From positions 1 through 64,000 of the IMG/VR virus record IMGVR_UViG_3300032323_001487: a stretch of 64,000 nt of DNA; one strand, given 5' to 3'. This document shows, piece by piece, positions 18,883-43,415 of the stretch. The notes under the pieces were generated by a model that was not told the origin of the DNA, searched no databases, and saw only the letters and a program-made list of their open reading frames with translations. Made by a program: the position numbers and the translations under genes. The stretch's first letter is position 1, and every line of letters starts with the position of its first letter. This stretch comes from a virus (Duplodnaviria; Caudoviricetes).

Positions 18883-19245
18883 GTAACGAAATGATAACGG
18901 CTTACGATTTAATCTTGACAAACCGGGAAAAGTCACTTTAAAATGTCTCCGACATTTTAAAGCAAATTTCGATACACTTCCCTCTACAGGCCAGTGTTTA
19001 GGCGGGGGTCGATTTTCCCCCTTTTATTTCATACGGTAAGCAACTGCGAGGCCCGCCTTCGAAAAGGGGTCCCCATTTTTCCAAGCGGCGAGCCAGGTTT
19101 CCCCCCAGGGGGAAGCCGCGTTATTTCATAACGGCAAGCCATGACGCGAAGCGGGAACGTTGACGGCGAGCGTTTACACGCGCTATGTTTATTTACACAA
19201 CGGCAAGCCAATAACGGCAAGCCGATAACGGAAAGCAGGAGACGG

Positions 19246-19473
19246 ATGGACTTTGACGCGTGGTTGAAGATGGGTTACGAGAACGGGTGGGTAGGACCCG
19301 ACGTGTGCTTTACGCACGACGGCGTGCCTATGACGGCAAGCGAAGAAGCGGAGTTCGAGACGGGTGACCCTTGCGTACACATAGTGCGCCTCTACGAGTC
19401 GACGGATGCCAAACGGAGCGTCGAGGAGAACCACTCACCGAGTGTATGGAGAGCCACCAACAAGGGGTGGTAG
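19246..19473 (+). CDS. Hypothetical protein
   Basis: SD AGGAG before MDFDAWL; C..HDG...C.H pattern. Confidence 0.7.
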   Translation: MDFDAWLKMGYENGWVGPDVCFTHDGVPMTASEEAEFETGDPCVHIVRLYESTDAKRSVEENHSPSVWRATNKGW

Positions 19474-19538
19474 TTTTTCCAAGCGGGAGTTGACGGTCGC
19501 TCGAATCACGTTTCCGGGTTTGTTTTATGATAAAACCC

Positions 19539-19751
19539 ATGAGACACATCGAGGTACATTTAGTCGAGAGTAACGACGACAGAGAGTCATTGAACAAGGC
19601 TGGCTTTGACCTGTTCGAAGTCGAGACCTGCGAGCAATGCTTTGAGGAAGTTGGCGCAGTCGAAGACGCTGAGTTCGTTTCATTTGTTGTTTGTCTAGAC
19701 GAGGAAGATGAGTGGATTGTCTGCGCTGAGTGCGCTGAACCCATCTTGTAA
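19539..19751 (+). CDS. Acidic Zn-finger-like small protein
   Basis: CEQC...CAEC; TATGAT just upstream of the ATG. Confidence 0.65.
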   Translation: MRHIEVHLVESNDDRESLNKAGFDLFEVETCEQCFEEVGAVEDAEFVSFVVCLDEEDEWIVCAECAEPIL

Positions 19752-19769
19752 AGGGGTGCCTGTTTTTCC

Positions 19770-20255
19770 GTGCGAAAACTTTCTGTCTACCAAGACGTCG
19801 AGATTGACCTCGACGCGATTCTGAAATTATCTGAAGACTCTGAGTGGTTTGATGCTCAGATTGGCGATGTTCGCGATTTCTCATTTCGCAGGCTGAAGCA
19901 GTTCCAAGAAATTATTTTTCCGCAAATTAAAAATTACGTCGAAGATTGCTCAGACGAGCCACTCGAGATGGAATCATTTACTTTGATTCGATACACAGAG
20001 GGGCAGTTCTTTATCGAGCACTCTGACGACGACATCGAGGAACTCGAGCGCAAACTCTCCATCGTTATTTATTTGAACGACGATTACGAAGGAGGGGAGA
20101 TTTACTTCAGGAAACAAAACCTGACCATCAAACCCAAAGCCAACTCTCTGGTCGCGTTTCCTTCGACTGACGAATTCGTTCACGAAGCGAAGCCAATCAC
20201 CTCTGGGACAAAATATATAATCACCAGTTTTTGGTATTCGCGCTTGGAAAACTAG
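19770..20255 (+). CDS. 2OG-Fe(II) oxygenase (prolyl-4-hydroxylase-like)
   Basis: RY..GQFF..HSD, SIVIYLNDDYEGGE, HEAKPITSGTKY. Confidence 0.88.
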   Translation: MRKLSVYQDVEIDLDAILKLSEDSEWFDAQIGDVRDFSFRRLKQFQEIIFPQIKNYVEDCSDEPLEMESFTLIRYTEGQFFIEHSDDDIEELERKLSIVIYLNDDYEGGEIYFRKQNLTIKPKANSLVAFPSTDEFVHEAKPITSGTKYIITSFWYSRLEN

Positions 20256-20317
20256 CGACCCCTTTTTCTTTGCCAACCCACTTTCAAAATGTCAGTGGCT
20301 GCTCATACACTCAGAGT

Positions 20318-20641
20318 ATGGATGAATTTACAAATTACACAGAAGACGACTGGATGAGTTGGTGGACAGAGGTTTTCTATGGCATCGAGAACGATGACAT
20401 AGTTCACATCTGCGACCCACACGAAACCAAGCAGTGCGTCGATTGCGCGAAGGTTGACAATTGCTGGAACGAGAATGGTCTCTACATTCTCTGTACAGAT
20501 TGCCTCACAGTCGAGAGCACGTTGGAGATGAACCAAGTTCTAGGAGACGAGGACAGCCCCTACGCACACCTGAGCGAAGAAGAGAAAAAAGAAAAGTTCT
20601 TGGAGATGTATCGCGAGAATCCAGATATGTTCGACTTCTAA
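20318..20641 (+). CDS. Acidic Cys-containing hypothetical protein
   Basis: CVDC...CTDC; TACACT just upstream of the ATG. Confidence 0.65.
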   Translation: MDEFTNYTEDDWMSWWTEVFYGIENDDIVHICDPHETKQCVDCAKVDNCWNENGLYILCTDCLTVESTLEMNQVLGDEDSPYAHLSEEEKKEKFLEMYRENPDMFDF

Positions 20642-20715
20642 AAGTTTTTATAAATAAACTTGACAAAAAGATTTTTATCACTCATACTGTTACCAACAAC
20701 TCTTGAAGGAGAGAA

Positions 20716-21015
20716 ATGACACCAAGGATGAAAGACATCACCATCACCACAGCCACGATTGACTTTGGCGATTGGAAACTCACTGCGACTGGTCAACTCG
20801 GAACCCACAGCGAGTGGCGCGTCGAGCAAACCACTCCAGCGATTCACTACACGAACGACTGGAAGATGCGCGATTACATTTGCGACCAACAGGAACTCGA
20901 GAAGTTCCTCTGGGAAGAAGTTCAGCGCATCAACCAAAAGTATTCAGTCTGCGTATTCGAGGAAACTATCGAGCAGGTCGAAGACGAGGACTACTTCGAG
21001 GAAGAGGACAACTAA
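20716..21015 (+). CDS. Hypothetical early protein
   Basis: Own promoter and SD GAAGGAG. Confidence 0.75.
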   Translation: MTPRMKDITITTATIDFGDWKLTATGQLGTHSEWRVEQTTPAIHYTNDWKMRDYICDQQELEKFLWEEVQRINQKYSVCVFEETIEQVEDEDYFEEEDN

Positions 21016-21167
21016 TGTCAGAGCGCAACTGTTCCATCGCGACTTGCGACAAGCACGCAGATGTCTACGCAGGTGGACCCTACTCAGGAGACTGGGCTGA
21101 CTACTACTGCCACGACCACATCCCACAAAATTTTCAAGTCTGGGATAGACTTGACAAACAGAAATAA
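21015..21167 (+). CDS. Small Cys/His hypothetical protein
   Basis: MSERNCSIATC...YYCHDH; TAATG coupling. Confidence 0.6.
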   Translation: MSERNCSIATCDKHADVYAGGPYSGDWADYYCHDHIPQNFQVWDRLDKQK

Positions 21168-21211
21168 ATCTGCTTTACTAGCAGAGTCATAAAAAACAAG
21201 AAGGAGACAAA

Positions 21212-21604
21212 ATGACAGAACGAGTAACTTGGGTGGACTACCAGTGGAAAGACGAAGCAATGTCTGGAGACAAGATGGCAATGGTGGTAATTCTCAACGA
21301 CAAAGACCTTTACGAGAAGTTGTCTACAGACGACGAGTTCGACCAGCGCGTCTGGTTTTACTTTCAAGACGAGGCAGAGTTCAAGCGTGCGTTCAATAAG
21401 GACAACGACGAACACGAGTTCTACTTGGTCGCACAGTATGACGAAGAGGACAACCCAATCTGTCCATCGTGCGATGGATTCATCCCAAGCAATGAGAACC
21501 CGGGCGCATACCCAGGGGCTATCTCGCGCAAAGACAACAGCACAGAGATTTGCTCAGCGTGTGGAACTGCTGAGGCGCTCGCGGACTTTTTTGGAAATAA
21601 ATAA
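21212..21604 (+). CDS. Hypothetical protein with a C-terminal Zn ribbon
   Basis: CPSC...GAISRKDN..EICSACG; SD AAGGAG. Confidence 0.75.
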   Translation: MTERVTWVDYQWKDEAMSGDKMAMVVILNDKDLYEKLSTDDEFDQRVWFYFQDEAEFKRAFNKDNDEHEFYLVAQYDEEDNPICPSCDGFIPSNENPGAYPGAISRKDNSTEICSACGTAEALADFFGNK

Positions 21605-21693
21605 AAAATCTTTTACGACACGCTTGACAAATAAAAATAAATCTGTTTTACTATTCAGGTAAGCAAAACCACTCGTTAGGAAGGAAAAAACAA

Positions 21694-22188
21694 ATGAGTG
21701 TAAAAAACAAAAAGGACAGCGCAGGTAAGGCGCTGTATGTGGAGTTCCGCAAGGCAGGCTACACATACCAGTTCATCCTCACCCCTGAGGCTGTCTTCAA
21801 TGGTCAGTTCTATCCTGTCCACTTTATGCGTAGAAATATGAACAGTTTCCAGTCTCGCAAGAACTGGGCTATCGATGCGACTCGTCACATCCCAAGCCCA
21901 CCTATTGACGCGTCAGGCGACTTTGCTCAGGCATCAGACGCTGAGGCAAAGCAAATGGCAGAACTCAAGTTACAGTTTGTGAAAAGCACGCTGAGCGACT
22001 TGTTCTACAAAGAGTGGAAAGTCTTCAAGAATCCAATCGCTGTCGAAGTTACTTACGAGGACCTAGACCTGATTGCTCAGAAGAAAACCCCTCAGGCGCT
22101 GATTCGTCGAATCCAGCGTTCACGAGTTGAGTTCGGTTTTGGAGAAGACCTAGTGTCTACTGCTGAGCCAACGATTCCAGTAGCGTAA
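21694..22188 (+). CDS. Hypothetical protein
   Basis: Own promoter, SD GGAAGGA; upstream of the AAA+ gene. Confidence 0.75.
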   Translation: MSVKNKKDSAGKALYVEFRKAGYTYQFILTPEAVFNGQFYPVHFMRRNMNSFQSRKNWAIDATRHIPSPPIDASGDFAQASDAEAKQMAELKLQFVKSTLSDLFYKEWKVFKNPIAVEVTYEDLDLIAQKKTPQALIRRIQRSRVEFGFGEDLVSTAEPTIPVA

Positions 22189-22213
22189 ATCTCAGATAGG
22201 AAGGAAATACAAA

Positions 22214-23212
22214 ATGACTGAGACTACTTTTATTGAGAAGGCAGAGCGCCTTCACGCAGATTTGCCAGCAGTTCTTTATGGACTTGCCGGGCAAGCGATA
22301 AACTCAGAGTTGGGAAAAACTCTCGACTCTTACTACGACGACAAAGTAGGTCGCGCTGTTATTCGCAATCGTGGATTAGTGAAAGGCAAAATCATTAGCG
22401 CAGATGCTCTTGTAGGAGAAGACTCTTACGCAAGACCTAATGGCGACAAATACTTTGCTCGCAACTGGGGTTCTAGCGCACATAAGGATGTCGAGGTTCT
22501 TCGCAAGAGTCGCGATGTCAATCAGTTCGTGTTGCTATATGGCGCACCTGGTTGTGGAAAAACCGCGCTCGCGGAAGCCGCGTTTGGTTCAGACCTTTAC
22601 ACAGTTCTAGGTTCTGGCGACACAGAAGTTTCCGACTTGGTTGGTGGCTATGTCCAGACTCCAAGTGGCTCGTTCGAGTGGGTCGATGGTCCTCTCCTTC
22701 GCGCAGCAGAAGAAGGCAAAGTTCTTCTGATTGACGAAGTGGGTCTTATCGACTCGAAGGTTCTGACTGTTGTCTATGGACTTATGGATGGTCGTCGCGA
22801 GTACACAGTTACTGCTAACCCAGAGCGCGGCACAGTCAAGGCGAAGGATGGATTCTTCGTTATCGCTGCGACTAACCCAAACGCACCGGGCGTAGTTCTC
22901 TCAGAGGCTTTGCTATCGCGATTCACTATTCAGGCAGAAATGACTACTGACTGGTCGCTCGCGAAGAAGTTGGGCGTTCCTATGCAAATGGTTACTGCGG
23001 CGCAGAACCTTGCTAAGAAGTTCACCAGCGACGAAGTTTCGTGGGTTCCTCAGATGCGCGAGTTGCTCGCGTTCCGAGACCTGTCGAAAGTATTTGGCAC
23101 CTCGTGGGCTATCGAGAATTTGATAGCCGCCTGCCCTGAGTTAGACAGACCTACTGTGGTCGATGTGCTGACTCGTGTGTATGGCGAGGAGTGCCGCGCA
23201 GCCAGAATCTAG
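22214..23212 (+). CDS. MoxR-family AAA+ ATPase (CbbQ/NirQ/CobS-like)
   Basis: Walker A GAPGCGKT, FEWVDGPL, Walker B LLIDE, ATNP, ALLSRF. Confidence 0.9.
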   Translation: MTETTFIEKAERLHADLPAVLYGLAGQAINSELGKTLDSYYDDKVGRAVIRNRGLVKGKIISADALVGEDSYARPNGDKYFARNWGSSAHKDVEVLRKSRDVNQFVLLYGAPGCGKTALAEAAFGSDLYTVLGSGDTEVSDLVGGYVQTPSGSFEWVDGPLLRAAEEGKVLLIDEVGLIDSKVLTVVYGLMDGRREYTVTANPERGTVKAKDGFFVIAATNPNAPGVVLSEALLSRFTIQAEMTTDWSLAKKLGVPMQMVTAAQNLAKKFTSDEVSWVPQMRELLAFRDLSKVFGTSWAIENLIAACPELDRPTVVDVLTRVYGEECRAARI

Positions 23213-23344
23213 GCTCCTTCCCCTAGATTCTCTAGCGAGGGGGTGGGTTGGTTCTCCCCAACTCACCCTCTCTTCAACTTGACAATCAATAAAAAATCCT
23301 TTACCATTACAGAGTAGCAATTAGATGAAAGGACACAAAGACTA

Positions 23345-25207
23345 ATGGCTCATTACTCACCTAGTATCGAAACTAGAAAATCCACTCCAACTGAGTGGCT
23401 ACGAATTGGCGCACAGATTGGTCAAATCGTAAACAACTGGTCTTACAGAGACGACCTCGTGGTCTATCTAGGAGAAGAGATGTCTGCGCCTTACGCAGCG
23501 CTCTTCAATCCTGCGAGCGCCGAGGTCGAGGTCAACGTGGTTCGAGCATTTGGCTCGTTCGCAAATCCTGCTTTGATTGGCGACCTCACCAAGCGCAAGA
23601 ATCAACTCGAGCACGCATCAGGTTGTGGCTCTGTCTATCACGAGGCTTGCCACGCGCGGTTCACTCGCTGGTCTCTCGCAGACGCTGCTCGTATTTTGAC
23701 TAAGCGCGAGCACGATGCTCTGATGCTTTTGGAAGAAGGTCGCATCGAATCTTTTGGAGTCGCCTCAATCCCGGGCAACAAAATTCTTCTTCGCTCTTCT
23801 GGTATGGAAATCGCGATTGGCGACTTCGACAAAGTTAAGGAGAACCTCACCAGCATCGATAGCGTCGTTCAGTTGTGTGGGCTAATGCTTGCTCGCGTTG
23901 ATGCTGGCGTTTTCACAGAAGAAGATGTCGAGCCTTTGGCAGAAGTTGTTGACTTAGCGATTGGCGCAGACAACGTTGCCAAGTTGCGTTCTATCTGGAT
24001 TGCGTTCCAAGCGCACGACCAGCACACCAACGCTCTACCTCTTTACGACCTTGCTCGCGAGTGGGTCAGGATTGTAGACGAGATTAAGTCAGAGAAGGGC
24101 GAAGAGCCTAGCGATGATGGTTGCTCTTACCCTGGAGCATCAGGTGAGCCGGGCGCATCAAGCGAGCCGGGCGAGCCAAGCGAATCAGGTGAGCCAAGCG
24201 AGAACCCAATTTGGAAAGCAGTCAACAAGGCTCTTGAAGATGCTATCGAAGAAATAAAAGACAACATCCAGATTGACAACCAGACTGCGATTGACAACGC
24301 AATCGAAGACGAAGAGATGCGCGAAGAAGTTCAGGCTCGCAACTCTGAGGCAGAACGTCGTCAAGAAGAGAAGAAGGTTTCTGATGAAGTCTTTGGTCGT
24401 GGCACTGGTCCTAGCGCAGACACTAAGACTCGCTCGAGACTAATCGAGAGTCGCAAGCCAACTAGTTCAGAGCGAGCCTCTGCTGTTCGCGTTGCTCGAC
24501 TACTCGACAAAGCGAAATACCGCGAGCGCGAACAAACTCGTATCAAGAGCGTAGTTCCACCGGGTCGTCTTCGCACGCGAGCAATCGTTCAGGGTCAGGC
24601 TCTCAAGTCGAAGGGTATCAACCAAGAGACAGAGGCGTGGCGTAGAACCCAGCGCAAGCACACAGAAGACCCAACTCTTCACGTGGGCGTGCTGGTAGAC
24701 ATCTCAGGCTCGATGCGTAGCGCGATGAACCCAATGGCGACAACTGCTTGGGTTCTGTCAGAGGCTGGTCGTAGGATTCAGGCTCAGACTTCGATGGTCT
24801 ACTTCGGCAATGGCGTGTTCCCGACTCTCAAGCCGGGACAGCACCTAGACGAAGTGAAGGTCTACTCGGCGACTGACAACACCGAGCGATTCGAGAAGGC
24901 GTTCAAGGCGCTGAACGGTCAGATGAATCTGACTCGCAGTTCGGGCGCTCGTCTGCTCGTGATTGTGTCTGACGGATACTACGACTACGACCAGCGCGAG
25001 GCTGCTAGCAAAGCGGTAGCGGAGTGCGAGAAGGCAGGCGTGGCAGTTATCTGGCTCACCTACGACGAAGGCTCGACGGCTAAGGCGATTCTGCGGAACA
25101 GCAAGAACGCCCGACTGATTCTCGCTCACGGCAAGACATCGGAAGAGGTCGCGCAACTAATCGGTAGCGAGTCTGCCGATGCGCTGACCAAGGTCGGTAG
25201 GAGATAA
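23345..25207 (+). CDS. VWA-domain partner protein (CobT-like) with an N-terminal HExxH
   Basis: HEACH...EEGRIE, acidic linker, MIDAS DISGS...T...SDG. Confidence 0.88.
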   Translation: MAHYSPSIETRKSTPTEWLRIGAQIGQIVNNWSYRDDLVVYLGEEMSAPYAALFNPASAEVEVNVVRAFGSFANPALIGDLTKRKNQLEHASGCGSVYHEACHARFTRWSLADAARILTKREHDALMLLEEGRIESFGVASIPGNKILLRSSGMEIAIGDFDKVKENLTSIDSVVQLCGLMLARVDAGVFTEEDVEPLAEVVDLAIGADNVAKLRSIWIAFQAHDQHTNALPLYDLAREWVRIVDEIKSEKGEEPSDDGCSYPGASGEPGASSEPGEPSESGEPSENPIWKAVNKALEDAIEEIKDNIQIDNQTAIDNAIEDEEMREEVQARNSEAERRQEEKKVSDEVFGRGTGPSADTKTRSRLIESRKPTSSERASAVRVARLLDKAKYREREQTRIKSVVPPGRLRTRAIVQGQALKSKGINQETEAWRRTQRKHTEDPTLHVGVLVDISGSMRSAMNPMATTAWVLSEAGRRIQAQTSMVYFGNGVFPTLKPGQHLDEVKVYSATDNTERFEKAFKALNGQMNLTRSSGARLLVIVSDGYYDYDQREAASKAVAECEKAGVAVIWLTYDEGSTAKAILRNSKNARLILAHGKTSEEVAQLIGSESADALTKVGRR

Positions 25208-25332
25208 CGGCTTGGGGGTAGGGATTGTGTCCCCTACCCCCGACACGCCGATACAATAAAACTTGACACGGCAAGCGATTAGCGCAATAATTAGATACAC
25301 GAGCCAACGGCTCGCCTAACGGAAGGACAAAA

Positions 25333-25767: not shown

Positions 25768-25804
25768 AAAGCCACGAGCCTTGAAAAGGGGTTCGTGGTT
25801 TTTT
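25768..25804 (+). terminator. Intrinsic terminator
   Basis: GCCACGAGCC...GGTTCGTGGT followed by a T-tract. Confidence 0.75.
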
Positions 25805-26009
25805 CGTATCTTGAAAAAGGGGTAGCCCTTTTTCCAAGCGAGGTTTTGACTCGCTCGCTCACTCGCTCACTCGCTGTGAAATAAAAATCTGCGTCGTGCT
25901 TCTCCTGAACGACACGCCAAAAAAAGTTCTATAAATAACTTGACTTAATGTCAGGGGTGTGTTTTACTCTATTTACATCAAAGTTCTTTGGAAGGAGAAC
26001 AAACAAAAA

Positions 26010-28890: not shown

Positions 28891-29118
28891 ATGGCAAGGA
28901 AGAAGAAGCCAGCACTCGACCAAGCGAACGAAGCACGACGCAAGGCTGAGGCGAAAGCCTTGGCAGAGATACTGCGAGAGCGAGCGAGGTCGAACGCAAG
29001 TGGCGTTCACGAGGACAAGCGAACAAAGCGTTTGCGAACTCGTGAGGCGAAGACGAGGGAAGCCCTGAGAGATTTTGACTCAGGGCTTTTTTCGTATCGA
29101 GCGAAGCGAGGGGTCTAG
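28891..29118 (+). CDS. Small highly basic protein with an internal terminator
   Basis: Promoter TTGACG-16-TATAAT, SD GGAAGGAG, 75 aa rich in Arg/Lys. Confidence 0.75.
   Translation: MARKKKPALDQANEARRKAEAKALAEILRERARSNASGVHEDKRTKRLRTREAKTREALRDFDSGLFSYRAKRGV
29060..29092 (+). terminator. Intrinsic terminator inside the 28891 ORF
   Basis: AGCCCTGAG-AGATTTTGA-CTCAGGGCT-TTTTT; the stop codon is at 29116-29118. Confidence 0.75.
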
Positions 29119-29167
29119 GTTTTCGCTTGGAAAAAGAGAGACCCCTTTACGCTCGACCGGGAAAAGA

Positions 29168-29196
29168 AAAATCCCCAACTTTCGTTGGGGACTTTC
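29168..29196 (-). terminator. Terminator for the minus-strand gene, possibly bidirectional
   Basis: TCCCCAAC-TTTC-GTTGGGGA with an A-tract on the left. Confidence 0.7.
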
Positions 29197-29211
29197 CTGA
29201 TTGGGTTTTGA

Positions 29212-29394
29212 CTACTCGACGATTGAAGTCGTGTTCAGCCAAACGCTCGCTGAACCAGAGTTGTCGTTCGAGTTGAAAGTCGAGACGAACTCAACTGCTT
29301 TGTCCCAAGCACCAACACCAAAGTTGATGTAGAACTTTGAGCCATTGTCCAACTGAACTAGGACACGAACCCCCTGCGATACTGCTTTTTCCAT
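29212..29394 (-). CDS. Hypothetical protein
   Basis: MEKAVSQG... with SD CAGGAG and a minus-strand TTGACA near 29469. Confidence 0.65.
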   Translation of the reverse strand: MEKAVSQGVRVLVQLDNGSKFYINFGVGAWDKAVEFVSTFNSNDNSGSASVWLNTTSIVE

Positions 29395-29587
29395 TTTCCA
29401 CTCCTGAGAGATAGAACCAACGCCAAACGATTGTTTGACCTTTTCAGGATAGGGTCTCATAAATCTTTTGTCAAGCGACACGCCAAAAAACTTTTTTGAA
29501 AATGTGCTTGACAAATGTCGCAGGTGTCCCCTATCCTGACAGAGTGAAGTTCGATTGGCTTCACGAAAAAAGCAAAAGGAGTTTCAA

Positions 29588-30516: not shown

Positions 30517-30523
30517 GTCTTTA

Positions 30524-30961
30524 ACGGCTAGCCCTTGACGGCTCGCCCTATGACCGCCAACGGATAAGACCAACGGCTAGCCCTTGACGGCTCGCCTGAT
30601 ACGGATTGACGGCTCGCCCTATGCCAACGGCTCGCCCTTGACGGACAGCACGCCAGCGGGTCGCTGACGGCTTGCCCTTGACGGCTCGCCCTTGACGGAC
30701 AGACGGACACAGACGGCTCGCCCTATGACCGCTGACGGCTTGCCCGTAGGAAGTCCAACGGCTTGCCCTAAGAGACCCTGACGGGTCGCTAACGGCTTGC
30801 CTATGACGGCTTGCCCTAAACGCCCAACGGGTGAGCGTGTAGAGCCTGACGGGTCGTGTTTTGACGGGTGGGGGAGTGGGAGTCGGGAGAGCCTGACGGA
30901 TAGGTAAAAGGGGGGTGAAGCGATTGACGGGTGGGAAGGGGGAGACGCCGGGGATTGACGG
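30524..30961 (+). repeat. Degenerate direct-repeat array, unit ACGGCTHGCCCTTG (14 bp)
   Basis: About 25 ACGG cores, all on +, most often 14 bp apart; no credible ORF. Confidence 0.85.
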
Positions 30962-31550
30962 GTGGGTAAAGGGGTAGTGGATTTTCCAGACTTGACAAAG
31001 TGGCTGAGTCATGTAGACGCACTCGAAGAAGGGACTCATGAAGGGGGTCGAAGATGGGGGACTCATGAAGGGGGGTTGGGAGTCATGGGGGCGAAGGGGA
31101 AGAAGGGGGGAAGTTCAGGGGGAAGGGGGAAGCCGGGAAAGGTTTTGGAAAAGGGGTAGGGGATTTTCCAAGCGAGTTTTTAGGTCTAAAAAACACAAGA
31201 TACAAAAAAAGTCAAGTCGTGATGAGTCGAAGTTCAGCAAGAAGCACGCAAGATGAGCAAGAAGCACCCAAGATAAGCAAGATAAGCAATAAAACAGGAG
31301 AAGTTCGAGAAAGTTGCCTCGAAAACGAGGCAGGAAAAAGGGGTATAGGTTTTTCCAAGCGATTTTCTCGACCCAAGAAGCGTCGAGTCCATCAAAAAAC
31401 ATAAGATACGAAAAAAGTCAAGTTTTATCGACTCATCAAACGCAAAAAATAACAAAGAAAACAAAGAACGAACCAAAAAACAGAGAACGAGCAAAGCGAA
31501 GGAGAAGAAGCGAAGGAGAAGTTCAGGAAGTTCAGCAAAGAAATAAAAAT
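30860..31550 (+). other. G-run tract followed by an A-rich, purine-skewed non-coding tract
   Basis: Many G3-G6 runs at 30865-31162, GGGACTCATGAAGGGG x2, and AAAAACAYAAGATACRAAAAAAGTCAAGT duplicated near 31189 and 31395. Confidence 0.7.
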
Positions 31551-31809
31551 CCCCAGGCCCTGGACCTGGAACCACCTGGGTGGTATTTCCGCGTGGAAAA
31601 CCAAAGACCCCTTTTTTTATTTTCTATCCCTGGCAGGAAACTTTCTGGGACTCAGCAAAAGAGATAGCAAATGCTAGTAGGCGAGAACTACTACAACGCA
31701 GACGCTGGTCTCTTTGCTCAGGAAGATGTGTTTGGCGAACACAATTCGTGCGAGCACGACCACACTTGCGTATGTGGAAAGGAATTAGGCTAAAAACCTA
31801 AAACCAAGG

Positions 31810-31841
31810 AACGCTCCACCAGAAATGGTGGGGCGTTTTTT
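31810..31841 (+). terminator. Intrinsic terminator
   Basis: AACGCTCCACCA-GAAA-TGGTGGGGCGTTTTTT. Confidence 0.85.
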
Positions 31842-32085
31842 GTATCTTGAATCAAATCCCGCCGTGCGCCAGAGTCAGAAAAAGGGGTAGTGGTTTTTCC
31901 GAGCGCGTCGTCATGGCTTCGCTTCGCTCGCGATTGGTTCGGCGCTCGCTGGTCTTGGGGGTGGGCTTCGCGCTCGCGGAGTTCGACAAGAAATAGGTGC
32001 GCGACACGCCAAAAATAGTTTGCGCGAAAACTTGACAAATGTCAGTGGTCAGTATCATACTTGACTTGTCTAAGAAAGGACAAAG

Positions 32086-34823: not shown

Positions 34824-35087
34824 ATGGAAACTACCGAAATCAAACAGCGCATCATTGAGATTAGCGAACGACTAGTCGAAATAAACAGAGAGCAGTCTGC
34901 TTCTGGATTCGAACTTGCTCGCGCACAGGGCACAGATGCCGAACTAGGTATTCACATAGACCCACTCACCAAATGGGCTAGGCGTATGCGCGAACTCAAT
35001 ACCGAGTCTCAGGAACTTGTGGCAGAGCGTCGCCGACTAAGAGACATCAAGCGCGAACAGCGCGTATGCGATTGCGCGTGCCACTAA
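34824..35087 (+). CDS. Coiled-coil hypothetical protein
   Basis: SD TAAGGAG; ends in CDCACH. Confidence 0.7.
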   Translation: METTEIKQRIIEISERLVEINREQSASGFELARAQGTDAELGIHIDPLTKWARRMRELNTESQELVAERRRLRDIKREQRVCDCACH

Positions 35088-35875
35088 TGAAACTCACAAC
35101 CCCGATTGAGATTGACACCGCGCTCGCGGAACTCTACGACAAGAAGTATGAATTGAGATTGTCAGTGGAGCGTGCCGAGCAGGAAGTGCTTTTTGTCGAG
35201 AAGTATTACCCAAGCAACCAAGTTCGCAAGGAGCAAGCCGAGATTCGTGTAATCGTAGCCAAGAATAAACTTGCCGAACTGAGCACCGAGATTGCCGAAG
35301 TCGAGAAACTCTACACAGGTTGGACTCGCGCTTTTCTAGTTAGCAACGCTAATGGACACATTCACTCTTCGATGGAATGTAGCACTTGTTTCGATACCAC
35401 TCGATTCATTTGGCTACCGAACTTGTCTGGCGAAGACAGATTGAAGATTGCCGAGTTAGCAGGTGAAGGTGCTTGTACTATTTGCTACCCAGATGCGCCG
35501 AGCGAATACTTTTTGCGTAAGTGTCAGTTGGAAGACCCAAAGAAGGTTCAAGCACGCGAAGAGCGCGACGCAAAGAAGAAAGAGCGCGACGCGAAGAAGT
35601 TGCTAACTGGAATTACTAACCCAGATGGAACAGACCTAGTGATACGCGAGCGCCGATACAACAACACCATCAAGACAGAGCGCACAGCGCAGATTTGGGC
35701 AGTAGACAACCTTTACTGGATTGGTCAGTATGCCGACAAGGATTGGTTGGTTGAGCAGGTCGAAGAGCGTAAGCAGAACCACGAAATCGTCTTGGTGGCG
35801 CTCGCGCACAAGCGCGGGACATCAGTTGAAGAGCAACGCGAGTTGATTGCTAAGAAATTGAAGGCAAAGTTCTAA
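35087..35875 (+). CDS. Hypothetical phage protein with a Cys/His module
   Basis: GWTRAFLV...GHIHSSMECSTC...CTICYPDAP. Confidence 0.75.
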   Translation: MKLTTPIEIDTALAELYDKKYELRLSVERAEQEVLFVEKYYPSNQVRKEQAEIRVIVAKNKLAELSTEIAEVEKLYTGWTRAFLVSNANGHIHSSMECSTCFDTTRFIWLPNLSGEDRLKIAELAGEGACTICYPDAPSEYFLRKCQLEDPKKVQAREERDAKKKERDAKKLLTGITNPDGTDLVIRERRYNNTIKTERTAQIWAVDNLYWIGQYADKDWLVEQVEERKQNHEIVLVALAHKRGTSVEEQRELIAKKLKAKF

Positions 35876-36099
35876 AAACAACGAAAAAGTTGATGCGGGA
35901 AGCCATGTATTCGCTCGGAAAACCAAAACCCCCTTTCTACGCCAGGCCCCGCCCGACTCAGTGGCCCCGCCTCACAAAAAATGGGACTCAGGAGCCGAAG
36001 ACACGCCGACACAAATAAAAAGACAAATACTTGACAGATTGTAAATAAACCTATAATCTTGATACATAGGAAAGTTCCCTAAGGAAAAAAGGAGTTGAA

Positions 36100-37433: not shown

Positions 37434-37721
37434 GTTGGAAATCTTTTTTATAGTTTTGGGAGCCATAGCGCTTACGCTGGGTATTTTTGTTGTTGCCGTG
37501 GTTGCGCTTGGTCTATCAATCATTAGAAATGCGCCGAAATGGTTCGCAGAAGCAGAATATGGCGACGAAGACTAAAAATTAGGTGCCGATGGCTCCAGGG
37601 TAAAGGGGTAGGCGGTTATCCGAGCGAAATCGTCGCTTCGCGCTCGCAAAACTCGACTTGACAACACAATGGCTATTTGCTACAGTTATCAGGTAATCAA
37701 AAGACGAAAGGACAAAAACTT

Positions 37722-38690
37722 ATGACTACTCACAAACTAAAGGTCGCATATAGCCCTGACTACCTGAACTGGCAACTTGGCTCAGGCGATGGCAACCACC
37801 CTACTCAGCCGATTCGTGCGCGTATCGCGCTGGAGTGGCTAAAGGAAGACCTAGGCTCAGAAGTTGATGTTATCGACCCTGATATCAAGCGAGCAGACAG
37901 ACGCGAGTTGGAGACTATTCACCACCCCGCTTTTGTTAGTGAAGTTCTAGACCTTGGAGAGTGTGCCGATTGGACAGACTCAAGGCCACAGATGGGACAG
38001 ACTGCGCTAAAGATGTTTTCTGGAACTGCGCGACTAGTCGAGATGATTATTCGTAATCAGACAAAGATTGGCTTCAACCCACAGGGAGCAAAGCATCACG
38101 CGCAATACCGAACTTCAGAAGGTTTCTGCGTGTTCAATGACTTCGCTTGGGCTGCCAAAGCCTTCAAGCGTGCTGGACTCAAGGTTGTCTACATCGACTG
38201 GGATGTAAATGCTGGTGATGGTGTTCAGAACTTGCTTGCCGATACAGACATTCCAACCTTCAGTATTCACGGGCACGGGATTTACCCAACCCACTCAGAT
38301 ACTTGGAATGGTGACTACGAGAGCAAGAACACCACTGGAAACTACACTTGGCACAACGAAGCGAAGCACTGGTATAACTGGTGCCTAGTTCGTGGCGAAG
38401 GCGATGCTGGATTCAAGTGGGCTATCGACGAGATTGCTAAGAAGGTTGCCGAGTATAAGCCTGATGTAATCCTGCTTGCTACTGGAGCAGATGGTCACGA
38501 AGGCGAACACTGGGGACTGAAATACACCTTCGATGGTTATGCCTATGCGTCAAAGGTTGTTGCTGAACTGGCTAACAAGTATGCCGATGGTCGCGTGTTG
38601 ATTGGTGGTGCTGGTGGTTATCAGCCGTACACCCACACCCCGCGCATCTGGGCAAATGTCGTAAGAGACATCTACGAGCAAACTAACTAG
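37722..38690 (+). CDS. Histone deacetylase-family (AcuC-like) amidohydrolase
   Basis: HP..P.R, GAKHHA, GFCVFND, YIDWDV..GDGVQ, SIH, GAD.H, GGY. Confidence 0.9.
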   Translation: MTTHKLKVAYSPDYLNWQLGSGDGNHPTQPIRARIALEWLKEDLGSEVDVIDPDIKRADRRELETIHHPAFVSEVLDLGECADWTDSRPQMGQTALKMFSGTARLVEMIIRNQTKIGFNPQGAKHHAQYRTSEGFCVFNDFAWAAKAFKRAGLKVVYIDWDVNAGDGVQNLLADTDIPTFSIHGHGIYPTHSDTWNGDYESKNTTGNYTWHNEAKHWYNWCLVRGEGDAGFKWAIDEIAKKVAEYKPDVILLATGADGHEGEHWGLKYTFDGYAYASKVVAELANKYADGRVLIGGAGGYQPYTHTPRIWANVVRDIYEQTN

Positions 38691-38697
38691 GAGAAAA

Positions 38698-39030
38698 ATG
38701 ACAGACATTCAAGAGATTCGCGAACAAGGTATTGGGAGTAACTTCTCAGTGCTGAACCCCGAAGATGGATTCCGTAAGGATGACACCTTGTGGTTTGGTA
38801 ATTGTAGCGAGTGCGGTGAACGCGTAACTCAATCTCGACACTACGACTACTGGCAACACACCAAATTCTTAGAGAAGGGCTATGGCTCTAAGCAACAGTG
38901 GGAAGAGAACAGGTGGCACTCACAGGCTACTTCCACTGGCTTGGACTATTGCCCTACTGCTAAGGGAGAGCCTGATACCTGCGTAGTCTGGTACTATGAC
39001 GAAAACAATGAAAAGGTTTTTGTATCATAG
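38698..39030 (+). CDS. Hypothetical protein
   Basis: SD AGGAG; CSECG. Confidence 0.7.
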   Translation: MTDIQEIREQGIGSNFSVLNPEDGFRKDDTLWFGNCSECGERVTQSRHYDYWQHTKFLEKGYGSKQQWEENRWHSQATSTGLDYCPTAKGEPDTCVVWYYDENNEKVFVS

Positions 39031-39184
39031 AATAGAACTATGACTACAGATTTACTGCCGATTCTCATATCAGTCTTAGTGCTGATATCAGCCTGGGCAG
39101 TTTTCTTTTTCAGCACTATGTATCTAATCAAAGTCATATTCGACAAAATTGAAGAGCATAGAAATAAATCTAAGGAGCGATGAA

Positions 39185-39352
39185 ATGGGCGAATTACTTT
39201 TTGTTCTAGTTATCGGACTAGCAGTTGTTGCCTCGGTTACTTGGCTAGTCGATGGCTACAAGAAAGAACTAAGAGACCGACAAAATCAGAGAGATGTATC
39301 CCCAATGCTGGGAGTCGTCTTACCGAACAAGAAGGACAAGAAAGATGAATAG
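39185..39352 (+). CDS. Small membrane protein
   Basis: SD TAAGGAG; one transmembrane segment. Confidence 0.6.
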   Translation: MGELLFVLVIGLAVVASVTWLVDGYKKELRDRQNQRDVSPMLGVVLPNKKDKKDE

Positions 39353-39521
39353 TTGGATTGTTAGATTGAAGGATGTAGTTTGGACTGCTGTGTTTGCTGT
39401 CGCGCTCGCGGTAGTGGCTATTCTCGTAGCACTGATTGTGCCGAGTGCTATCTCGCTGGTGCTCGCGCTTGGGCTGGCCTCAGTTTCACTCGCTCTACTA
39501 TCTTGGAGAGTTGCTAGATAG
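39345..39521 (+). CDS. Small membrane protein
   Basis: Very hydrophobic 58-aa ORF, overlapping start. Confidence 0.6.
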   Translation: MNSWIVRLKDVVWTAVFAVALAVVAILVALIVPSAISLVLALGLASVSLALLSWRVAR

Positions 39522-39523
39522 TT

Positions 39524-39898
39524 ATGAGTGAGAAGAGATACAAGGTCCCGATTCCCGTAAAGCCTGAAGACCTTTATGCCGTAAGGGAGAAGGTCAAGCC
39601 TGCTGGAGCGTTCGTCGTGGGCGGGGGAGTGGTTGATGAAGTCAGACTATCTGCTGTCGTGTATCGCAATCTGGTTTCGCGCAAGTCTCTAACTATCCAC
39701 CACCTACAACGCCGATTGAATGAACTTGGTTTCACTTCTGCCTATCTAGACAAAGATGGCTGGTTCGATGAAGGAACTAGGTCAGCAATCAGGCTATTTC
39801 AAGAAGCAAATGAACTACCACCCACTGGGATGGTAGATGCCGATACTATGACCAAAATCTTTGATGGAGACCCGAACGTAGCGGTCATTTTGGACTAA
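39524..39898 (+). CDS. Peptidoglycan-binding domain protein
   Basis: LQRRLNELGF...DGWF...T.SAIRLFQ..N.L..TGMVD..T. Confidence 0.8.
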   Translation: MSEKRYKVPIPVKPEDLYAVREKVKPAGAFVVGGGVVDEVRLSAVVYRNLVSRKSLTIHHLQRRLNELGFTSAYLDKDGWFDEGTRSAIRLFQEANELPPTGMVDADTMTKIFDGDPNVAVILD

Positions 39899-40018
39899 AA
39901 ATAAAAGGGGTGCCAGATTCTCTGTGCGATGTTTCCCACTCGCGAACACCTATTGCTTTTACCCCACGACTGAGTTATCTTTATTGACAGAAAGACTTAC
40001 CAACAGAAAGAAGAAGAA

Positions 40019-40564
40019 ATGACAGAATTTCTCAAAAGAAATCAAAAATTACCACCAAACCTAGTTGAACTAGTAGCAACCATCTCAGATATGGAACTTC
40101 GCGATACCTACGTTCGTGCGCTTAGAAGCAAGGGCTGGACTCTACAAAGTATTGCCGAAGCCTGCGATGTATCCCGCGAGCGCGTTCGCCAAATCTGCGA
40201 GATGCCTGAGTCCAAGTTATTTGACTCAGTGGTAGTTCCTAGTCCGCCAGTGAAACAGGCGCGGGAGAAGGTTGTCTACGCGCAACCGACAAAGGAAACC
40301 TTAGACAGGTTGCTGGAACTAAAACCACTTGCTCAACAGGTTCGCTCTCACGCAACTCGTTATCGTGCCGAAGCAGAAGAATACACTCGCCTGCTGAACC
40401 ACGCTCATAAGGTAGAAGGAGTATCGCTATACAACCTAGCCAGACACCTAGGAGTTACCTATCCCGCTATTCGATTCCGACTGACTCGATACGGATATCT
40501 AGACGCTGGTAATGGAACTAGCAAGGTATACAACCCAATCCTTACTAAAAACCGTGCTCTCTAA
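40019..40564 (+). CDS. Double-HTH DNA-binding protein (sigma-70 region 4-like)
   Basis: GWTLQSIAEACDVSRERVRQI and SLYNLARHLGVTYPAIRFRL. Confidence 0.8.
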   Translation: MTEFLKRNQKLPPNLVELVATISDMELRDTYVRALRSKGWTLQSIAEACDVSRERVRQICEMPESKLFDSVVVPSPPVKQAREKVVYAQPTKETLDRLLELKPLAQQVRSHATRYRAEAEEYTRLLNHAHKVEGVSLYNLARHLGVTYPAIRFRLTRYGYLDAGNGTSKVYNPILTKNRAL

Positions 40565-40575
40565 ATCAGAGCAAA

Positions 40576-40613
40576 AAGAAAACCCCTAGACCAACATCTA
40601 GGGGTTTCTTTTT
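40576..40613. terminator. Bidirectional intrinsic terminator
   Basis: GAAAACCCCTAGA...TCTAGGGGTTTC with A- and T-tracts, between convergent genes. Confidence 0.85.
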
Positions 40614-40626
40614 AGTTTGCGGATAC

Positions 40627-40977
40627 TTACTTCAGAACCGAGAGCAGTTTCTCTTCCTGCTCTTTAGTCAGACCTAGAGTCTCGCCTTCGTCGTCTGCTC
40701 CACCAGTGATTACTATGTCGCCCATTATTAGGTCAGTCTTGCCGTAAGACAACTCCCAAAGGTATGTGGCAACAAAGTTGAATGGCAGACCATCGAGTTT
40801 GCCTTCTTCGTTACACCACATAGTTAGGTCATCCACTGGCTTCTCCAGTGGGACAGCCTGAATGTAGCCACCAACCGATGACTTCAGGTATTGGTATTCT
40901 GCTTTGTCAGAACCTTCTGGTATCGTCTCGATAATTATTTCGCTATTAGTTGTAATGCGGATAGCCGTCTTTGACAT
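40627..40977 (-). CDS. DUF3846-like protein
   Basis: L...VGGYIQAV...CNEEGKL.GLP.N..AT...GDIVI. Confidence 0.75.
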   Translation of the reverse strand: MSKTAIRITTNSEIIIETIPEGSDKAEYQYLKSSVGGYIQAVPLEKPVDDLTMWCNEEGKLDGLPFNFVATYLWELSYGKTDLIMGDIVITGGADDEGETLGLTKEQEEKLLSVLK

Positions 40978-41071
40978 CTTGTCTCCTTGTTCAATAAGCG
41001 ATGATGCTTATGGAATAAGTAAACCACAATCTATGGCTCTTGTCAAGCGTGTCCTATGTAATAATAGACCT

Positions 41072-42469
41072 ATGGCTAAATCTATTATGGAACAAATTGC
41101 GATGCTCCCCGATGATGAGCGAGCAGTCGTTCTTGCTGGAATGGATGCGGACACACTTATGTGGGACTGGTCAGTTTGGGGAAGACCAGAGCAACAGGCT
41201 CCACAGGGAGACTGGAACATCTGGATGTATATGGCTGGTCGTGGTGCTGGTAAGACTAGGACTGCTGCTGAGTGGGTTCGCGAAGAAGCCAAATACACCA
41301 ATACGGGTCAGAGAAGATTCGGACTCGTTGCTAGAACTGCTGCCGATGTTCGTGACGTTATCGTCGAAGGTGAGTCAGGGATTATGAATGTGTCTGCTCC
41401 AAGTGAGAAGCCTTTGTATGAACCATCTAAGCGTCGTCTTACTTGGCCTAATGGCAACACTGCCACTCTCTTCACAGCCGATGAACCAGACTCACTTCGT
41501 GGACCCCAGTTCACTCACGCTTGGGGAGATGAGATTGCGTCTTGGAGACAGACCCCAGATGGCGCTGGTATGACAGCCTTCGACAACCTTCGTGTTGGAA
41601 CTCGTCTAGGCTCACACCCAAAGATTATGATTACCACTACGCCTAAGCGAGTGCCGATTCTTTATCAGTTGCTGGCTGAGAATACCAAAGACCCTAGCCG
41701 TGTAGTTATAACTCGTGGTTCAACACTCGACAACTCAGGTAACTTGTCTAACGCATACCTTGACGCAATCACTGGAGTGTATGCGGGCACCCGTCTTGCT
41801 CAACAGGAACTCTATGGTGAGATGTTGGACAATGTTGAAGGCGCACTATGGAACGATGAGTTACTGAGTAGGTATCGCGAAAACGTAATGCCACTTAGTG
41901 CTCCACTTCGCATCATAGGTGTAGACCCTTCAGTAGCAGAGAACCCGCGAGATGAGTGTGGAATTGTTGTGTGTGCTGCCACTGCCGAGCGTGACTTGTA
42001 TAAGCGCAATGCTTGGGTGTTAGAAGACGCAACCATTCACGGCTCACCTGAAGTGTGGGCGAACAAAGTAGTTCAGATGGCACGCAAGTGGGGTTGCCCA
42101 GTCGTAGCCGAAATCAACCAAGGTGGTGCCTTAGTTCGCAATGCCATCAATGCGATTGACCCGAACATCAAGGTGCTAGAAGTTCACTCTAAATATGGCA
42201 AGGCTCTACGTGCCGAGCCAGTAGTTCTTGGATATGAGCAAGGTCGCGTTCATCACTTGGGATACCACGCAGACCTAGAGAGTCAGATGCTTGCTTGGAT
42301 TCCAGGAGAAGGCAAATCACCAGACCGTGTAGACGCGTTAGTTCACGCGCTAACAGCACTGATGATTAAGCCACCTGCTGGATTCGTTGGGGGAAAACTT
42401 ACTGCTAGGTCATTCGCATCTCGTAGAATTCCAGAAGCGAAGAGCACCTTCTTCAGACTTAGTAAGTAA
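41072..42469 (+). CDS. terL: Terminase large subunit
   Basis: Walker A AGRGAGKT, LRGPQ...WGDE, TTTP, nuclease GVDP...D.CG, SPDRVDA. Confidence 0.95.
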   Translation: MAKSIMEQIAMLPDDERAVVLAGMDADTLMWDWSVWGRPEQQAPQGDWNIWMYMAGRGAGKTRTAAEWVREEAKYTNTGQRRFGLVARTAADVRDVIVEGESGIMNVSAPSEKPLYEPSKRRLTWPNGNTATLFTADEPDSLRGPQFTHAWGDEIASWRQTPDGAGMTAFDNLRVGTRLGSHPKIMITTTPKRVPILYQLLAENTKDPSRVVITRGSTLDNSGNLSNAYLDAITGVYAGTRLAQQELYGEMLDNVEGALWNDELLSRYRENVMPLSAPLRIIGVDPSVAENPRDECGIVVCAATAERDLYKRNAWVLEDATIHGSPEVWANKVVQMARKWGCPVVAEINQGGALVRNAINAIDPNIKVLEVHSKYGKALRAEPVVLGYEQGRVHHLGYHADLESQMLAWIPGEGKSPDRVDALVHALTALMIKPPAGFVGGKLTARSFASRRIPEAKSTFFRLSK

Positions 42470-43030
42470 TTACTTACGCCAGTCCTGCGGGTCAATAGAC
42501 AGCAACCACTCGTTGAAGTGTTCGTTAGTTAGGGCTGCGCTTCCGCGATTGTCCTTCACCAACTGGATTGCTTCTTCTGCCGAGTAGCCTTCGCGAATTA
42601 GAACCAATGCGGTTACTATGCCTGAGCGGTTCAATCCTGCCTGACATCTAATTAGAACTCGCTTACCACGCTTCCAATTGGAGTGCGCTACTAGAACTAG
42701 GTCCCTTAGGTCTTCGATATCGAAGTCAGTCATATCGCCGTCATAGATGCCGAACCTAATCTCTTTCACCCACCAGTCCACAGGTTGTGCCGATGAATAC
42801 ATCGTCACCACTACGTCAAAGTCTTCAGGGCTAATGAAAGCCCCAGAGCCGAACCTTTGTGTGCGGACAGTGTCAGTTGAGTCAGTTCCACCTTGCCACA
42901 GACCTGGAGCAATCTCATCCCAGAGTCTCATAGGCATACGGTGACCCTTGTAGGTCTCGTTAGTCAATGCCGATAGGCTTGTGTTAGTTAGGTTAGTTGT
43001 CAATTCAGACTTCCTTTCGTAATTTGTCAT
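42470..43030 (-). CDS. Dual-specificity / tyrosine protein phosphatase
   Basis: VLIRCQAGLNRSG (CX5R loop). Confidence 0.9.
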   Translation of the reverse strand: MTNYERKSELTTNLTNTSLSALTNETYKGHRMPMRLWDEIAPGLWQGGTDSTDTVRTQRFGSGAFISPEDFDVVVTMYSSAQPVDWWVKEIRFGIYDGDMTDFDIEDLRDLVLVAHSNWKRGKRVLIRCQAGLNRSGIVTALVLIREGYSAEEAIQLVKDNRGSAALTNEHFNEWLLSIDPQDWRK

Positions 43031-43415
43031 AACCCAATGTTATCGAGTCATATCTCGTCTGTCAAGTCAATGCCGATACTTATTTTGACATCGGCACGTC
43101 TTATGCCGATAGCCCCTTCTTATGCCGTTGATGATTTTCAATACTTGCCCCCTAACCAATTCGCAAGCAGAGTTGATGGCTGACGCGATGACCCTGCTAT
43201 TTCATAAGCAATCAACAGCCAGTTGGAAGCCCTTGCTTCTCCCCCAAAACTTGTAGACAACCTAGGAACCAGTTATCTACTAGCAATCACATAGCAATAA
43301 GACCAGTCATCTCCTAGATTTACCCCAGAACCAGAGAACCAGAAGCCAAAAAGAAAGGTCGAGCGCGAACGACAGGTATTACTGGAAAACCATAGACCCC
43401 TTTTTATCTCCCCTG

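Follow-up and report, generated by a model that had tools for sequence, protein, structure and literature searches.

The DNA analyzed here is a 64,000-nucleotide window, positions 1 to 64,000 of the IMG/VR record IMGVR_UViG_3300032323_001487, which is a partial genome (77,230 bp, 58% complete by CheckV) of an uncultured freshwater actinobacterial phage. Between its lysin and its terminase and portal genes lies an island of mostly small genes, whose content includes a 2OG-Fe(II) oxygenase, an HTH_3 protein, an NlpC/P60 protein, a deacetylase-like protein and a dual-specificity phosphatase, and it is along this stretch that the subject of the present work, a 25-bp bipartite DNA motif, recurs. 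The large terminase has 448 relatives in IMG/VR; the nearest named record is the Actinomycetia phage DSL-LC01 (77% identity), followed by Microbacterium and Gordonia phages, and a near-identity search of a phage collection gave no match. The lineage is widespread in metagenomes and has no cultured member, and the genes of its closest record are largely annotated as hypothetical. Throughout, G000 designates the record under study, G001 to G005 and G008 to G011 the relatives compared with it, and L numbers terminase loci; G001 is a complete relative of 132.6 kb that is collinear with G000 and ~90% identical to it.

The consensus of the motif is AAAGGGGT-N6-TTTTCCRAGCG, 25 bp in two arms. At up to 3 mismatches the window contains 17 matches where 0.01 would be expected, a count reached in none of 100 shuffles, and an additional site, R43379, scores well on the weight matrix despite 4 mismatches, which brings the total to 18 sites, all within 17.47–43.40 kb of the window. 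Over the whole 77,230-bp record we found no strict match beyond the window sites (14 matches at up to 2 mismatches, against 0 for a control pattern), and a far looser core pattern adds two lone matches, at 57.2 and 71.3 kb of the record, which we take as chance. The initial annotation had reported sixteen sites between 19.0 and 43.4 kb; fifteen of these are recovered at their positions and strands with 0–3 mismatches, the sixteenth being the four-mismatch R43379. Two sites within genes, R17469 and F18333, had been missed, so that the range starts at 17.47 rather than 19.06 kb. In the 18-site alignment only positions 1–8 and 15–25 carry information and the six spacer positions carry none, bearing out a spacer that is fixed in length and variable in sequence; there is no conservation over 40 nt upstream or 70 nt downstream, similarity ending at 25 bp, and the motif itself contains no internal dyad symmetry. 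The palindromes proposed at 29109–29148 and 31578–31614 prove imperfect: ungapped, 14 of 40 positions are self-complementary in the first and 12 of 37 in the second. The forward halves that overlap the reverse copies there have spacers of just 5 and 4 nt, so they are not true copies of the motif.

Comparison with the relatives establishes the motif as a real, clade-wide and strongly selected cis element. In 18 orthologous G000/G001 pairs, differences affect 5 of 342 arm positions and 11 of 108 spacer positions (Fisher P = 1.4e-4), with ~26% difference in the ungapped flanks; this disparity between arms and spacer, together with flanks that often diverge right up to the motif, indicates that the arms are under direct selection and that the length of the spacer, not its sequence, matters. 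G001 harbors 17 strict matches, all at 50.7–72.5 kb of its 132.6 kb. Elsewhere the arms vary in concert by lineage, as AAAGGGT-N6-TTTTCCACGCA in G003 (14 sites, all at 53.9–76.0 kb of 102 kb), AAGGGT-N6-TTTTCCATGY in G004 and G005, and GGGT-N6/7-TTTTTCCATGC in the complete, ~135-kb genomes G008 and G009 (at 68–86 kb and 71–90 kb), giving four lineage variants in all. Their common core, GGGT-N6/7-TTTTCC(A/G)nG, belongs to one subclade of ~130-kb freshwater actinophages: across 80 terminase loci (1.12 Mb) it yields 54 matches versus 9 for a reversed control, and all 54 fall in L017–L054 (terminase identity of roughly at least 82%), with none in L055–L097. In the sister genomes, the complete G010 has 2 core matches and the 90%-complete G011 has 0. 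The motif always resides in a 20–26-kb accessory-gene island upstream of the terminase, its sites being confined to ~20% of the complete genomes; the search of the full record and its relatives recommended by the initial annotation thus finds the motif conserved in related phages and not distributed genome-wide.

In sister lineages the corresponding island contains repeated regulatory motifs of other kinds. DSL-LC01 (L097, 9.0–28.4 kb of the locus) carries 20 copies of a phage-specific promoter, TTCTAAAG-N4-TATAAT, with a conserved leader, while G010 carries 13 copies of a TTAGG...CCTAA palindrome beside promoters at 41.8–52.7 kb, as well as a 12-mer at 20–28.5 kb; the G010 palindrome is a different element from the 25-bp motif. 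A literature search on actinophage intergenic repeats returned nothing relevant among the 15 of 758 papers listed, and we do not claim the motif as unpublished; in the DSL-LC01 paper the words 'promoter' and 'repeat' occur 0 times (PMC10611076).

The individual sites, designated by strand (F for plus, R for minus) and first position in the window, are found in recurrent surroundings. R17469 (17469–17493, minus, 1 mismatch) lies within a 309-aa gene (17015–17944), is identical in G001 and is mirrored, in position and strand, by a core match within the orthologous gene of G008 and G009, and F18333 (18333–18357, plus, 3 mismatches) lies within the CHAP/peptidoglycan-binding lysin gene (18106–18882), whose orthologues in G008 and G009 have core matches about equally far into the gene. 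Farther along, F19063 (19063–19087, plus, 0 mismatches) is intergenic, behind a hairpin and T-run, and is identical to G001 at 25 of 25 positions although both flanks diverge. The spacer of F19461 (19461–19485, plus, 1 mismatch) contains the stop codon of the upstream gene, and the 2OG-Fe(II) oxygenase gene is framed by F19750 (19750–19774, plus, 1 mismatch) at its left edge and by R20241 (20241–20265, minus, 0 mismatches) at its right edge, the stop codon of the oxygenase falling in the spacer of the latter, where identity to G001 rises from ~72% to ~100%. F25816 (25816–25840, plus, 0 mismatches), which has an orthologous-position counterpart in G003, G008 and G009, is preceded by a terminator 12 nt before it and followed by the next −35 box ~95 nt on; R29124 (29124–29148, minus) likewise has 0 mismatches. 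Five sites then crowd 30.97–31.91 kb, a noncoding hub adjoining an iteron array: F30968 (30968–30992, plus, 3 mismatches) at the end of the array, with a TTGACA box in place of its 3′ end; F31150 (31150–31174, plus, 0 mismatches); F31337 (31337–31361, plus, 0 mismatches), again 25/25 identical to G001 between diverged flanks; R31590 (31590–31614, minus, 1 mismatch); and F31881 (31881–31905, plus, 0 mismatches), ~45 nt past a terminator and 127 nt ahead of a TTGACA-18-CATACT promoter. Upstream of the NlpC/P60 gene, F33482 (33482–33506, plus, 1 mismatch) has a TTGACT box 15 nt on and an orthologous site in G003, whereas R35912 (35912–35936, minus, 1 mismatch) is situated 37 nt past a 269-aa gene and ~93 nt ahead of a TTGACA-17-TATAAT promoter. 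F37602 (37602–37626, plus, 1 mismatch), with a TTGACA box 31 nt on, precedes the deacetylase-like gene and has orthologous sites in G003, G004 and G005; F39904 (39904–39928, plus, 3 mismatches) lies 91 nt before the start of a gene for a protein with two helix-turn-helix (HTH) domains (40019–40564). Finally, R43379 (43379–43403, minus), whose 4 mismatches all fall in the last five bases, in the 3′ arm, is retained in G001, G002 and L018 and lies within the 814-nt divergent spacer between the phosphatase gene (minus) and gene 43844 (plus).

In the array next to the hub, a 14-nt iteron (GACGGCTYGCCCTT-like) is repeated ~20 times over the noncoding stretch 30520–30960 of the window, and G-run-rich and purine-rich repeats extend on to ~31.55 kb; this repeat stretch could represent an origin or a control hub. 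An iteron-related word, AACGGCAAGCC, is present in 4 copies at 19129–19235.

After manual removal of doubtful open reading frames (ORFs), namely those antisense to conserved genes or in the repeat-filled 30.5–32.0 kb, 16 of the 18 sites fall in intergenic DNA or on a stop codon. If the greedy ORF calls are left uncurated, 10 of 18 site centers are outside ORFs (P = 0.03), so the earlier statement that sites sit nearly always at gene boundaries holds for the curated gene set only. The usual order is the end of a unit, often with a terminator, the motif, 0–130 nt, a sigma-A promoter preceded by a GACACGCC box of its own, and a gene; F25816 and F31881 follow this order, and R35912 and R20241 occupy the same place in flipped orientation. 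Near-consensus TTGACA/TATAAT promoters and hairpin terminators are frequent in the island and separate from the motif, in agreement with the initial annotation. In five genomes, a strong sigma-A-like promoter occurs within 150 nt downstream of 35% of 40 forward and 39% of 33 reverse sites, compared with 15% of random positions (n = 9,779), and a same-strand terminator lies within 80 nt upstream of 3 of 14 G000 sites and of 0–4 per genome in the other records, an association that is enriched and not general. Site orientation relative to gene direction (F:R) is 12:6 in G000, 8:6 in G003, 5:11 in G008 and 9:8 in G009. Because orientation with respect to transcription is so mixed across the relatives, the rule that a single reverse site closes each forward run, with which the first description divided the island into convergent blocks, is neither significant nor conserved: P is ~0.05 on the original list of sites and 0.09 for 'no two adjacent R' on all 18, and the rule breaks down in G003, with its RR and RRR runs, and in G008, with its 5 F and 11 R.

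Two further repeats accompany these signals. In promoter cassettes at 25910–25960, 29474–29520, 31990–32060 and 35995–36058, TTGACAAATGTC, whose −35 box forms one half of a dyad, is preceded at a distance of ~20 nt by a shared GACACGCC(A)n box. A second repeat, TTTTTTYGTATCTTG, stands behind terminators, and its reverse complement is found within a 30-nt repeat after F31150 and F31337; together these occurrences lie at 25786–25815, 31836–31849, 31188–31217 and 31394–31423.

We propose, with roughly even confidence, that the 25-bp element is an orientation-independent cis site for a sequence-specific DNA-binding protein, most likely encoded by the phage. A phage protein-binding system, as suggested at the outset, would thus still be the best reading, on the basis of the selected arms one helical turn apart, the free spacer, the restriction to one clade, the intergenic placement, the lack of RNA structure and the poor agreement with a sigma-type promoter or a terminator. 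With the centers of the two arms, GGGT (within AAAGGGGT) and TTTTCC with its lineage-specific 3′ extension, ~11 bp apart, one protein or two linked domains could contact the major groove at two consecutive turns on the same face of the DNA and leave the spacer unread. Since the sites lie in short spacers between independently transcribed genes and in either orientation, we infer that the bound protein would co-ordinately modulate or insulate the units, by shut-off, activation or the blocking of read-through, and would not itself direct initiation. Recurrence of the same short sequence at unit boundaries would also account for its occasional use as a cassette-replacement junction, which we treat as a by-product. 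A selected cis element at nearly every unit boundary offers a handle on accessory-gene control and exchange.

In its features the motif partly resembles stoperators, marboxes and phage boundary sequences and has the defining features of none. Stoperators, the sites of the L5 gp71 repressor in cluster A mycobacteriophages, are 13 bp long, undivided, spread genome-wide and uniformly oriented with transcription. Like the motif, they are short asymmetric sites in some 20–30 copies, mostly in short intergenic spaces of an actinobacteriophage and with one phage protein expected to bind them; unlike them, the motif is 25 bp long, bipartite, limited to one 26-kb island and of mixed orientation, and a repressor or integrase module was not found here. 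As both uniform orientation and genome-wide spread are lacking, stoperator-like silencing, one of the options raised initially, loses its footing, and another, staged ejection signals, finds no support in sites that lie mid-genome in the complete relatives. The marbox, an asymmetric ~20-bp site bound by the two-HTH monomers MarA, SoxS and Rob, shares with the motif the asymmetric two-part build, contact (for the motif, presumed) with adjacent major grooves and a position upstream of sigma-70-type promoters at variable distance and in either orientation; its sequence is unrelated, no AraC-family domain was detected here, and our candidate binder has a long flexible linker between its two HTH domains where marbox proteins have a rigid helix. 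T4-type phages have promoter-early stem-loop (PeSL) cassettes composed of a promoter and a hairpin. These, and lambdoid boundary sequences, are similarly repeated short elements edging small accessory genes in a hyperplastic region, with some mosaic junctions, but the 25 bp of the motif include neither promoter nor stem-loop and its enrichment at junctions is not significant. The conserved inverted repeats (CIRs) of the Streptomyces phage phiC31, 17-bp palindromes bound by its repressor, are likewise numerous around the promoters and terminators in the early region of an actinophage, whereas the motif has no dyad symmetry. It differs in the same respect from hix/gix, shufflon sfx and lox/dif-like sites, and also in the absence of a tyrosine recombinase and of inversions among close relatives.

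A candidate binder is the 169-aa plus-strand product of 43844–44353, in which a ~38-residue flexible basic linker connects two HTH domains; we regard its assignment to the motif as tentative and, on balance, unlikely. Its AlphaFold2 (AF2) model consists of two 4-helix HTH domains and a disordered proline- and arginine-rich linker, and, as modeled, such a two-HTH monomer would suit an asymmetric two-part site. The recognition-helix (helix-1) motif RSTxQYW is present at every L017–L054 locus with a regex-found protein and elsewhere only at L070, all other L055–L097 loci having K/R-A/S/F-W at the helix-1 position. One subgroup, L038, L040, L041 and L044, has TFRAM in helix 2 and shows no site within its windows. 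Foldseek returned nothing at E ≤ 0.001 for this protein and PHROGs just weak 'HTH DNA binding' rows, and all 55 homologues detected are unnamed or 'hypothetical'. Its paralogue at 40019–40564 is 31% identical; both proteins have one HTH at the N terminus and another at the C terminus, and the large terminase gene lies between their genes. In an extended form of the proposal, which we consider distinctly unlikely, the motif and the 43844–44353 protein would constitute an undescribed 'boundary element' system, in which a paired-like, transposase-derived two-HTH monomer lacking a catalytic domain binds every unit boundary, insulates or switches moron-like units and sets the junctions for cassette swaps. 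If the candidate does bind the motif, an unnamed family would gain a function and actinobacteria an orthogonal operator/regulator pair; if it does not, the motif would be one more of the repeated regulatory motifs common in large phages.

A second protein of interest, the 269-aa product of 35066–35875, is found only in the motif-bearing clade (14 of 20 loci versus 0 of 28). Its AF2 model (predicted local distance difference test score, pLDDT, 87.7) folds as an antiparallel coiled-coil hairpin followed by a four-cysteine domain, an architecture that, in the model, recalls RNA-polymerase secondary-channel factors of the DksA/Gre type, with no significant fold match: the protein has no sequence match in the PDB (best E = 0.08) and nothing in Foldseek at E ≤ 0.001, and a wider structure search gave generic coiled-coil rows only (residues 12–86), with unnamed viral clusters in the Atlas. 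A 159-aa and a 141-aa protein also have no PDB sequence match.

Several observations weigh against a phage-encoded binder acting from unit boundaries. R17469 and F18333 lie within genes, where a regulatory role is unclear, and under a strict scan a strong promoter follows within 150 nt at just about one third of the sites. Directionality hints at a promoter-like role: in G003 several opposite-strand sites precede opposite-strand ORFs, and at three loci, the histone deacetylase (HDAC) gene, the NlpC/P60 gene and the phosphatase operon, orthologous sites retain their orientation toward the gene that follows. As for the binder, the clade-specific residues of the candidate follow one phylogenetic split and are thus confounded with ancestry, which makes them weak evidence; either paralogue could equally be the small terminase subunit; and the 40019 paralogue has the same recognition helices in the motif-free G011. 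Proteins occurring only in motif-bearing genomes show no recognizable DNA-binding domain, those present in G001, G003, G008 and G009 and absent from G010 and G011 being mostly acidic or enzymes.

Among other explanations, the motif might chiefly be a recombination or boundary element, with short homologies or the sites of an unrecognized recombinase driving the exchange, gain and loss of accessory cassettes, which we judge unlikely. Single cases are suggestive. The oxygenase cassette between F19750 and R20241 is 68–75% identical to G001, while identity right of R20241 is 99–100%, with the switch falling within the R20241 3′ arm; a 312-bp minus-strand gene cassette present in G000 and not in G001 begins 13 nt beyond R29124; the interior of F31337–R31590 is replaced in G001 and G002, homology to G002 resuming 8 nt before R31590; at ~7 of 18 sites the homology of one flank ends within ~13 nt of the motif; and the G003 NlpC/P60 gene, too, has convergent sites on both sides. 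However, strong G000/G001 breakpoints within 15 nt of a motif number 2 of 14 (null 0.5–0.64, P = 0.09–0.12), and most large replacements (26.5, 27.3 and 32.0–32.8 kb) are away from sites, so that homology-driven exchange keeps its suggestive individual examples without significant enrichment of breakpoints at the motif. Strong purifying selection that holds 19 particular bases and leaves the spacer free would not, moreover, be expected of mere homology patches. The initial proposal of site-specific cassette shuffling is not supported: inverted high-scoring segment pairs between G000 and G001, G002 or L018 are none but the motif itself, a tyrosine integrase is absent from 4 of 4 relatives with a positive control, and the small serine recombinase lies far from the island at a locus that, as inferred from antisense ORF hits, is also present in the motif-free G010 and G011.

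That recombinase, on the minus strand at 12565–13005 of L098 (G001), has a Resolvase domain (E 5e-35) and is also found in G008 and G009; it adjoins a minus-strand gene block that differs between relatives and is possibly an invertase for host-range genes. The cassette beyond R29124, at 29161–29474 and absent from G001, resembles a moron-like insertion; its minus-strand gene has its own promoter and terminator.

The motif could alternatively be a promoter or core promoter element for phage transcription machinery, such as an unrecognized RNA polymerase, a sigma-like factor or a sigma appropriator, though we think this quite improbable. The directional hints given above fit such a role, as 12 of the 18 G000 sites point along the gene direction, the sites before the deacetylase, NlpC/P60 and phosphatase genes point at their gene in G000, G003, G004 and G005, and some opposite-strand sites in G003 are matched by ORFs on that strand. 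It would also accord with the 20 phage-specific promoters in the same island of DSL-LC01, with the sigma region-4-like helices of the two-HTH paralogues and with weak top Foldseek rows that are sigma factors (E 0.7–3, probability 0.05–0.14). Set against this are the F:R ratios of G008 and G009, the 4–5 site pairs that face each other ~27 nt apart in these two genomes, and R20241 and R35912, which point into the 3′ ends of plus-strand genes. The next start codon follows at varying distances, no downstream position at a constant offset shows conservation, and near-consensus sigma-A promoters already precede the genes. Sigma-70-family promoters have −35 and −10 elements ~16–19 bp apart, unlike the 6-nt gap between the arms, and none of the 4 relatives searched encodes Sigma70 region 2, the control being positive. 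T7-like RNA polymerase promoters are contiguous conserved stretches of ~20 bp co-oriented with genes, a type against which the mixed orientation and split conservation of the motif argue; a search for a T7-type polymerase (PF00940) found nothing, a weak negative because the control was also silent, and the giant virion proteins show just Nudix and exonuclease domains.

A binding protein could also come from the host, the phage recruiting or titrating a conserved actinobacterial DNA-binding factor with lineage variants that track hosts. The constancy of the core GGGT-N6-TTTTCC across four lineage variants with differing flanks would be explained in this way, as would the lack of a clade-specific phage protein with a clear DNA-binding domain. 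The exact type-A pattern has just 15 scattered single matches, at chance level, in 596 Gb (one genome for each of 185,579 species), however, and no matching record bears an actinobacterial title, so that at this level of testing the motif is not that of a host regulon; the sister clades of phages, whose hosts are presumably related, are entirely without it. Host-factor binding has a low probability in our estimation, and we retain a phage-encoded protein as the preferred binder.

More improbable still, the sites would be relics or recognition ends of a selfish element, similar to terminal inverted repeats and bound by a paired-like two-HTH domain as in IS630/Tc1 transposases, that have become fixed intergenically. 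Convergent F...R pairs do enclose one gene (the oxygenase), a gene block or ~27 bp, the ~27-bp pairs of G008 and G009 form roughly 70-bp units with similar interiors that resemble miniature inverted-repeat transposable elements, and the candidate protein combines two HTH domains with a weak HTH_23 match. Yet no DDE or other transposase domain is present among the proteins scanned, inspection revealed no consistent target-site duplication, most G000 sites are solitary, and similarity stops at 25 bp. Furthermore, the pairs are found at matching orthologous positions in G008 and G009 although these genomes are just ~70–80% identical, and are therefore old and fixed.

Action in RNA, as a processing, stability or translational signal, is barely credible: several sites touch stop codons or 5′ leaders and, in our reading, the 5′ arm resembles a Shine-Dalgarno sequence, but sites of either orientation are found within runs of genes that all point the same way, the distance to a start codon varies, most sites stand between a terminator and the next promoter, there is no conserved pairing partner in G000–G005, a downstream inverted arm is restricted to G008 and G009 (8 of 14 and 8 of 16 sites, respectively, as compared with 0 of 14 in G000), and an Rfam search gave nothing relevant. 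An intrinsic terminator was rejected, as most copies show no pairing between spacer and arms and separate hairpin terminators lie nearby, and ParB_N had no match in 5 of 5 records with a positive control, contrary to a ParB-parS-like centromere.

Finally, the island and its surroundings contain additional genes of note. A MoxR-type AAA_5 ATPase and a VWA protein are encoded in the island at 22214–25207 of the window. The histone-deacetylase-family gene (37677–38690) is present at 18 of 20 loci of the motif-bearing clade versus 2 of 28 others, and the dual-specificity phosphatase gene (42470–43030, minus strand) at 18 of 20 versus 7 of 28. The direct terminal repeats of the 'complete' records G001, G008, G009 and G010 measure just 103–119 bp and may reflect overlaps in the assembly of circular or permuted genomes, not genuine terminal repeats. 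Outside the island, the window contains three tRNA genes at 807–2151 (Gln-TTG, Leu-TAA and Arg-TCT), a gene for an N6/N4 DNA methylase (2166–3464) and one for a Mom-family protein (15693–16319, E 5e-46); judging from the latter two genes, the phage probably modifies its DNA.

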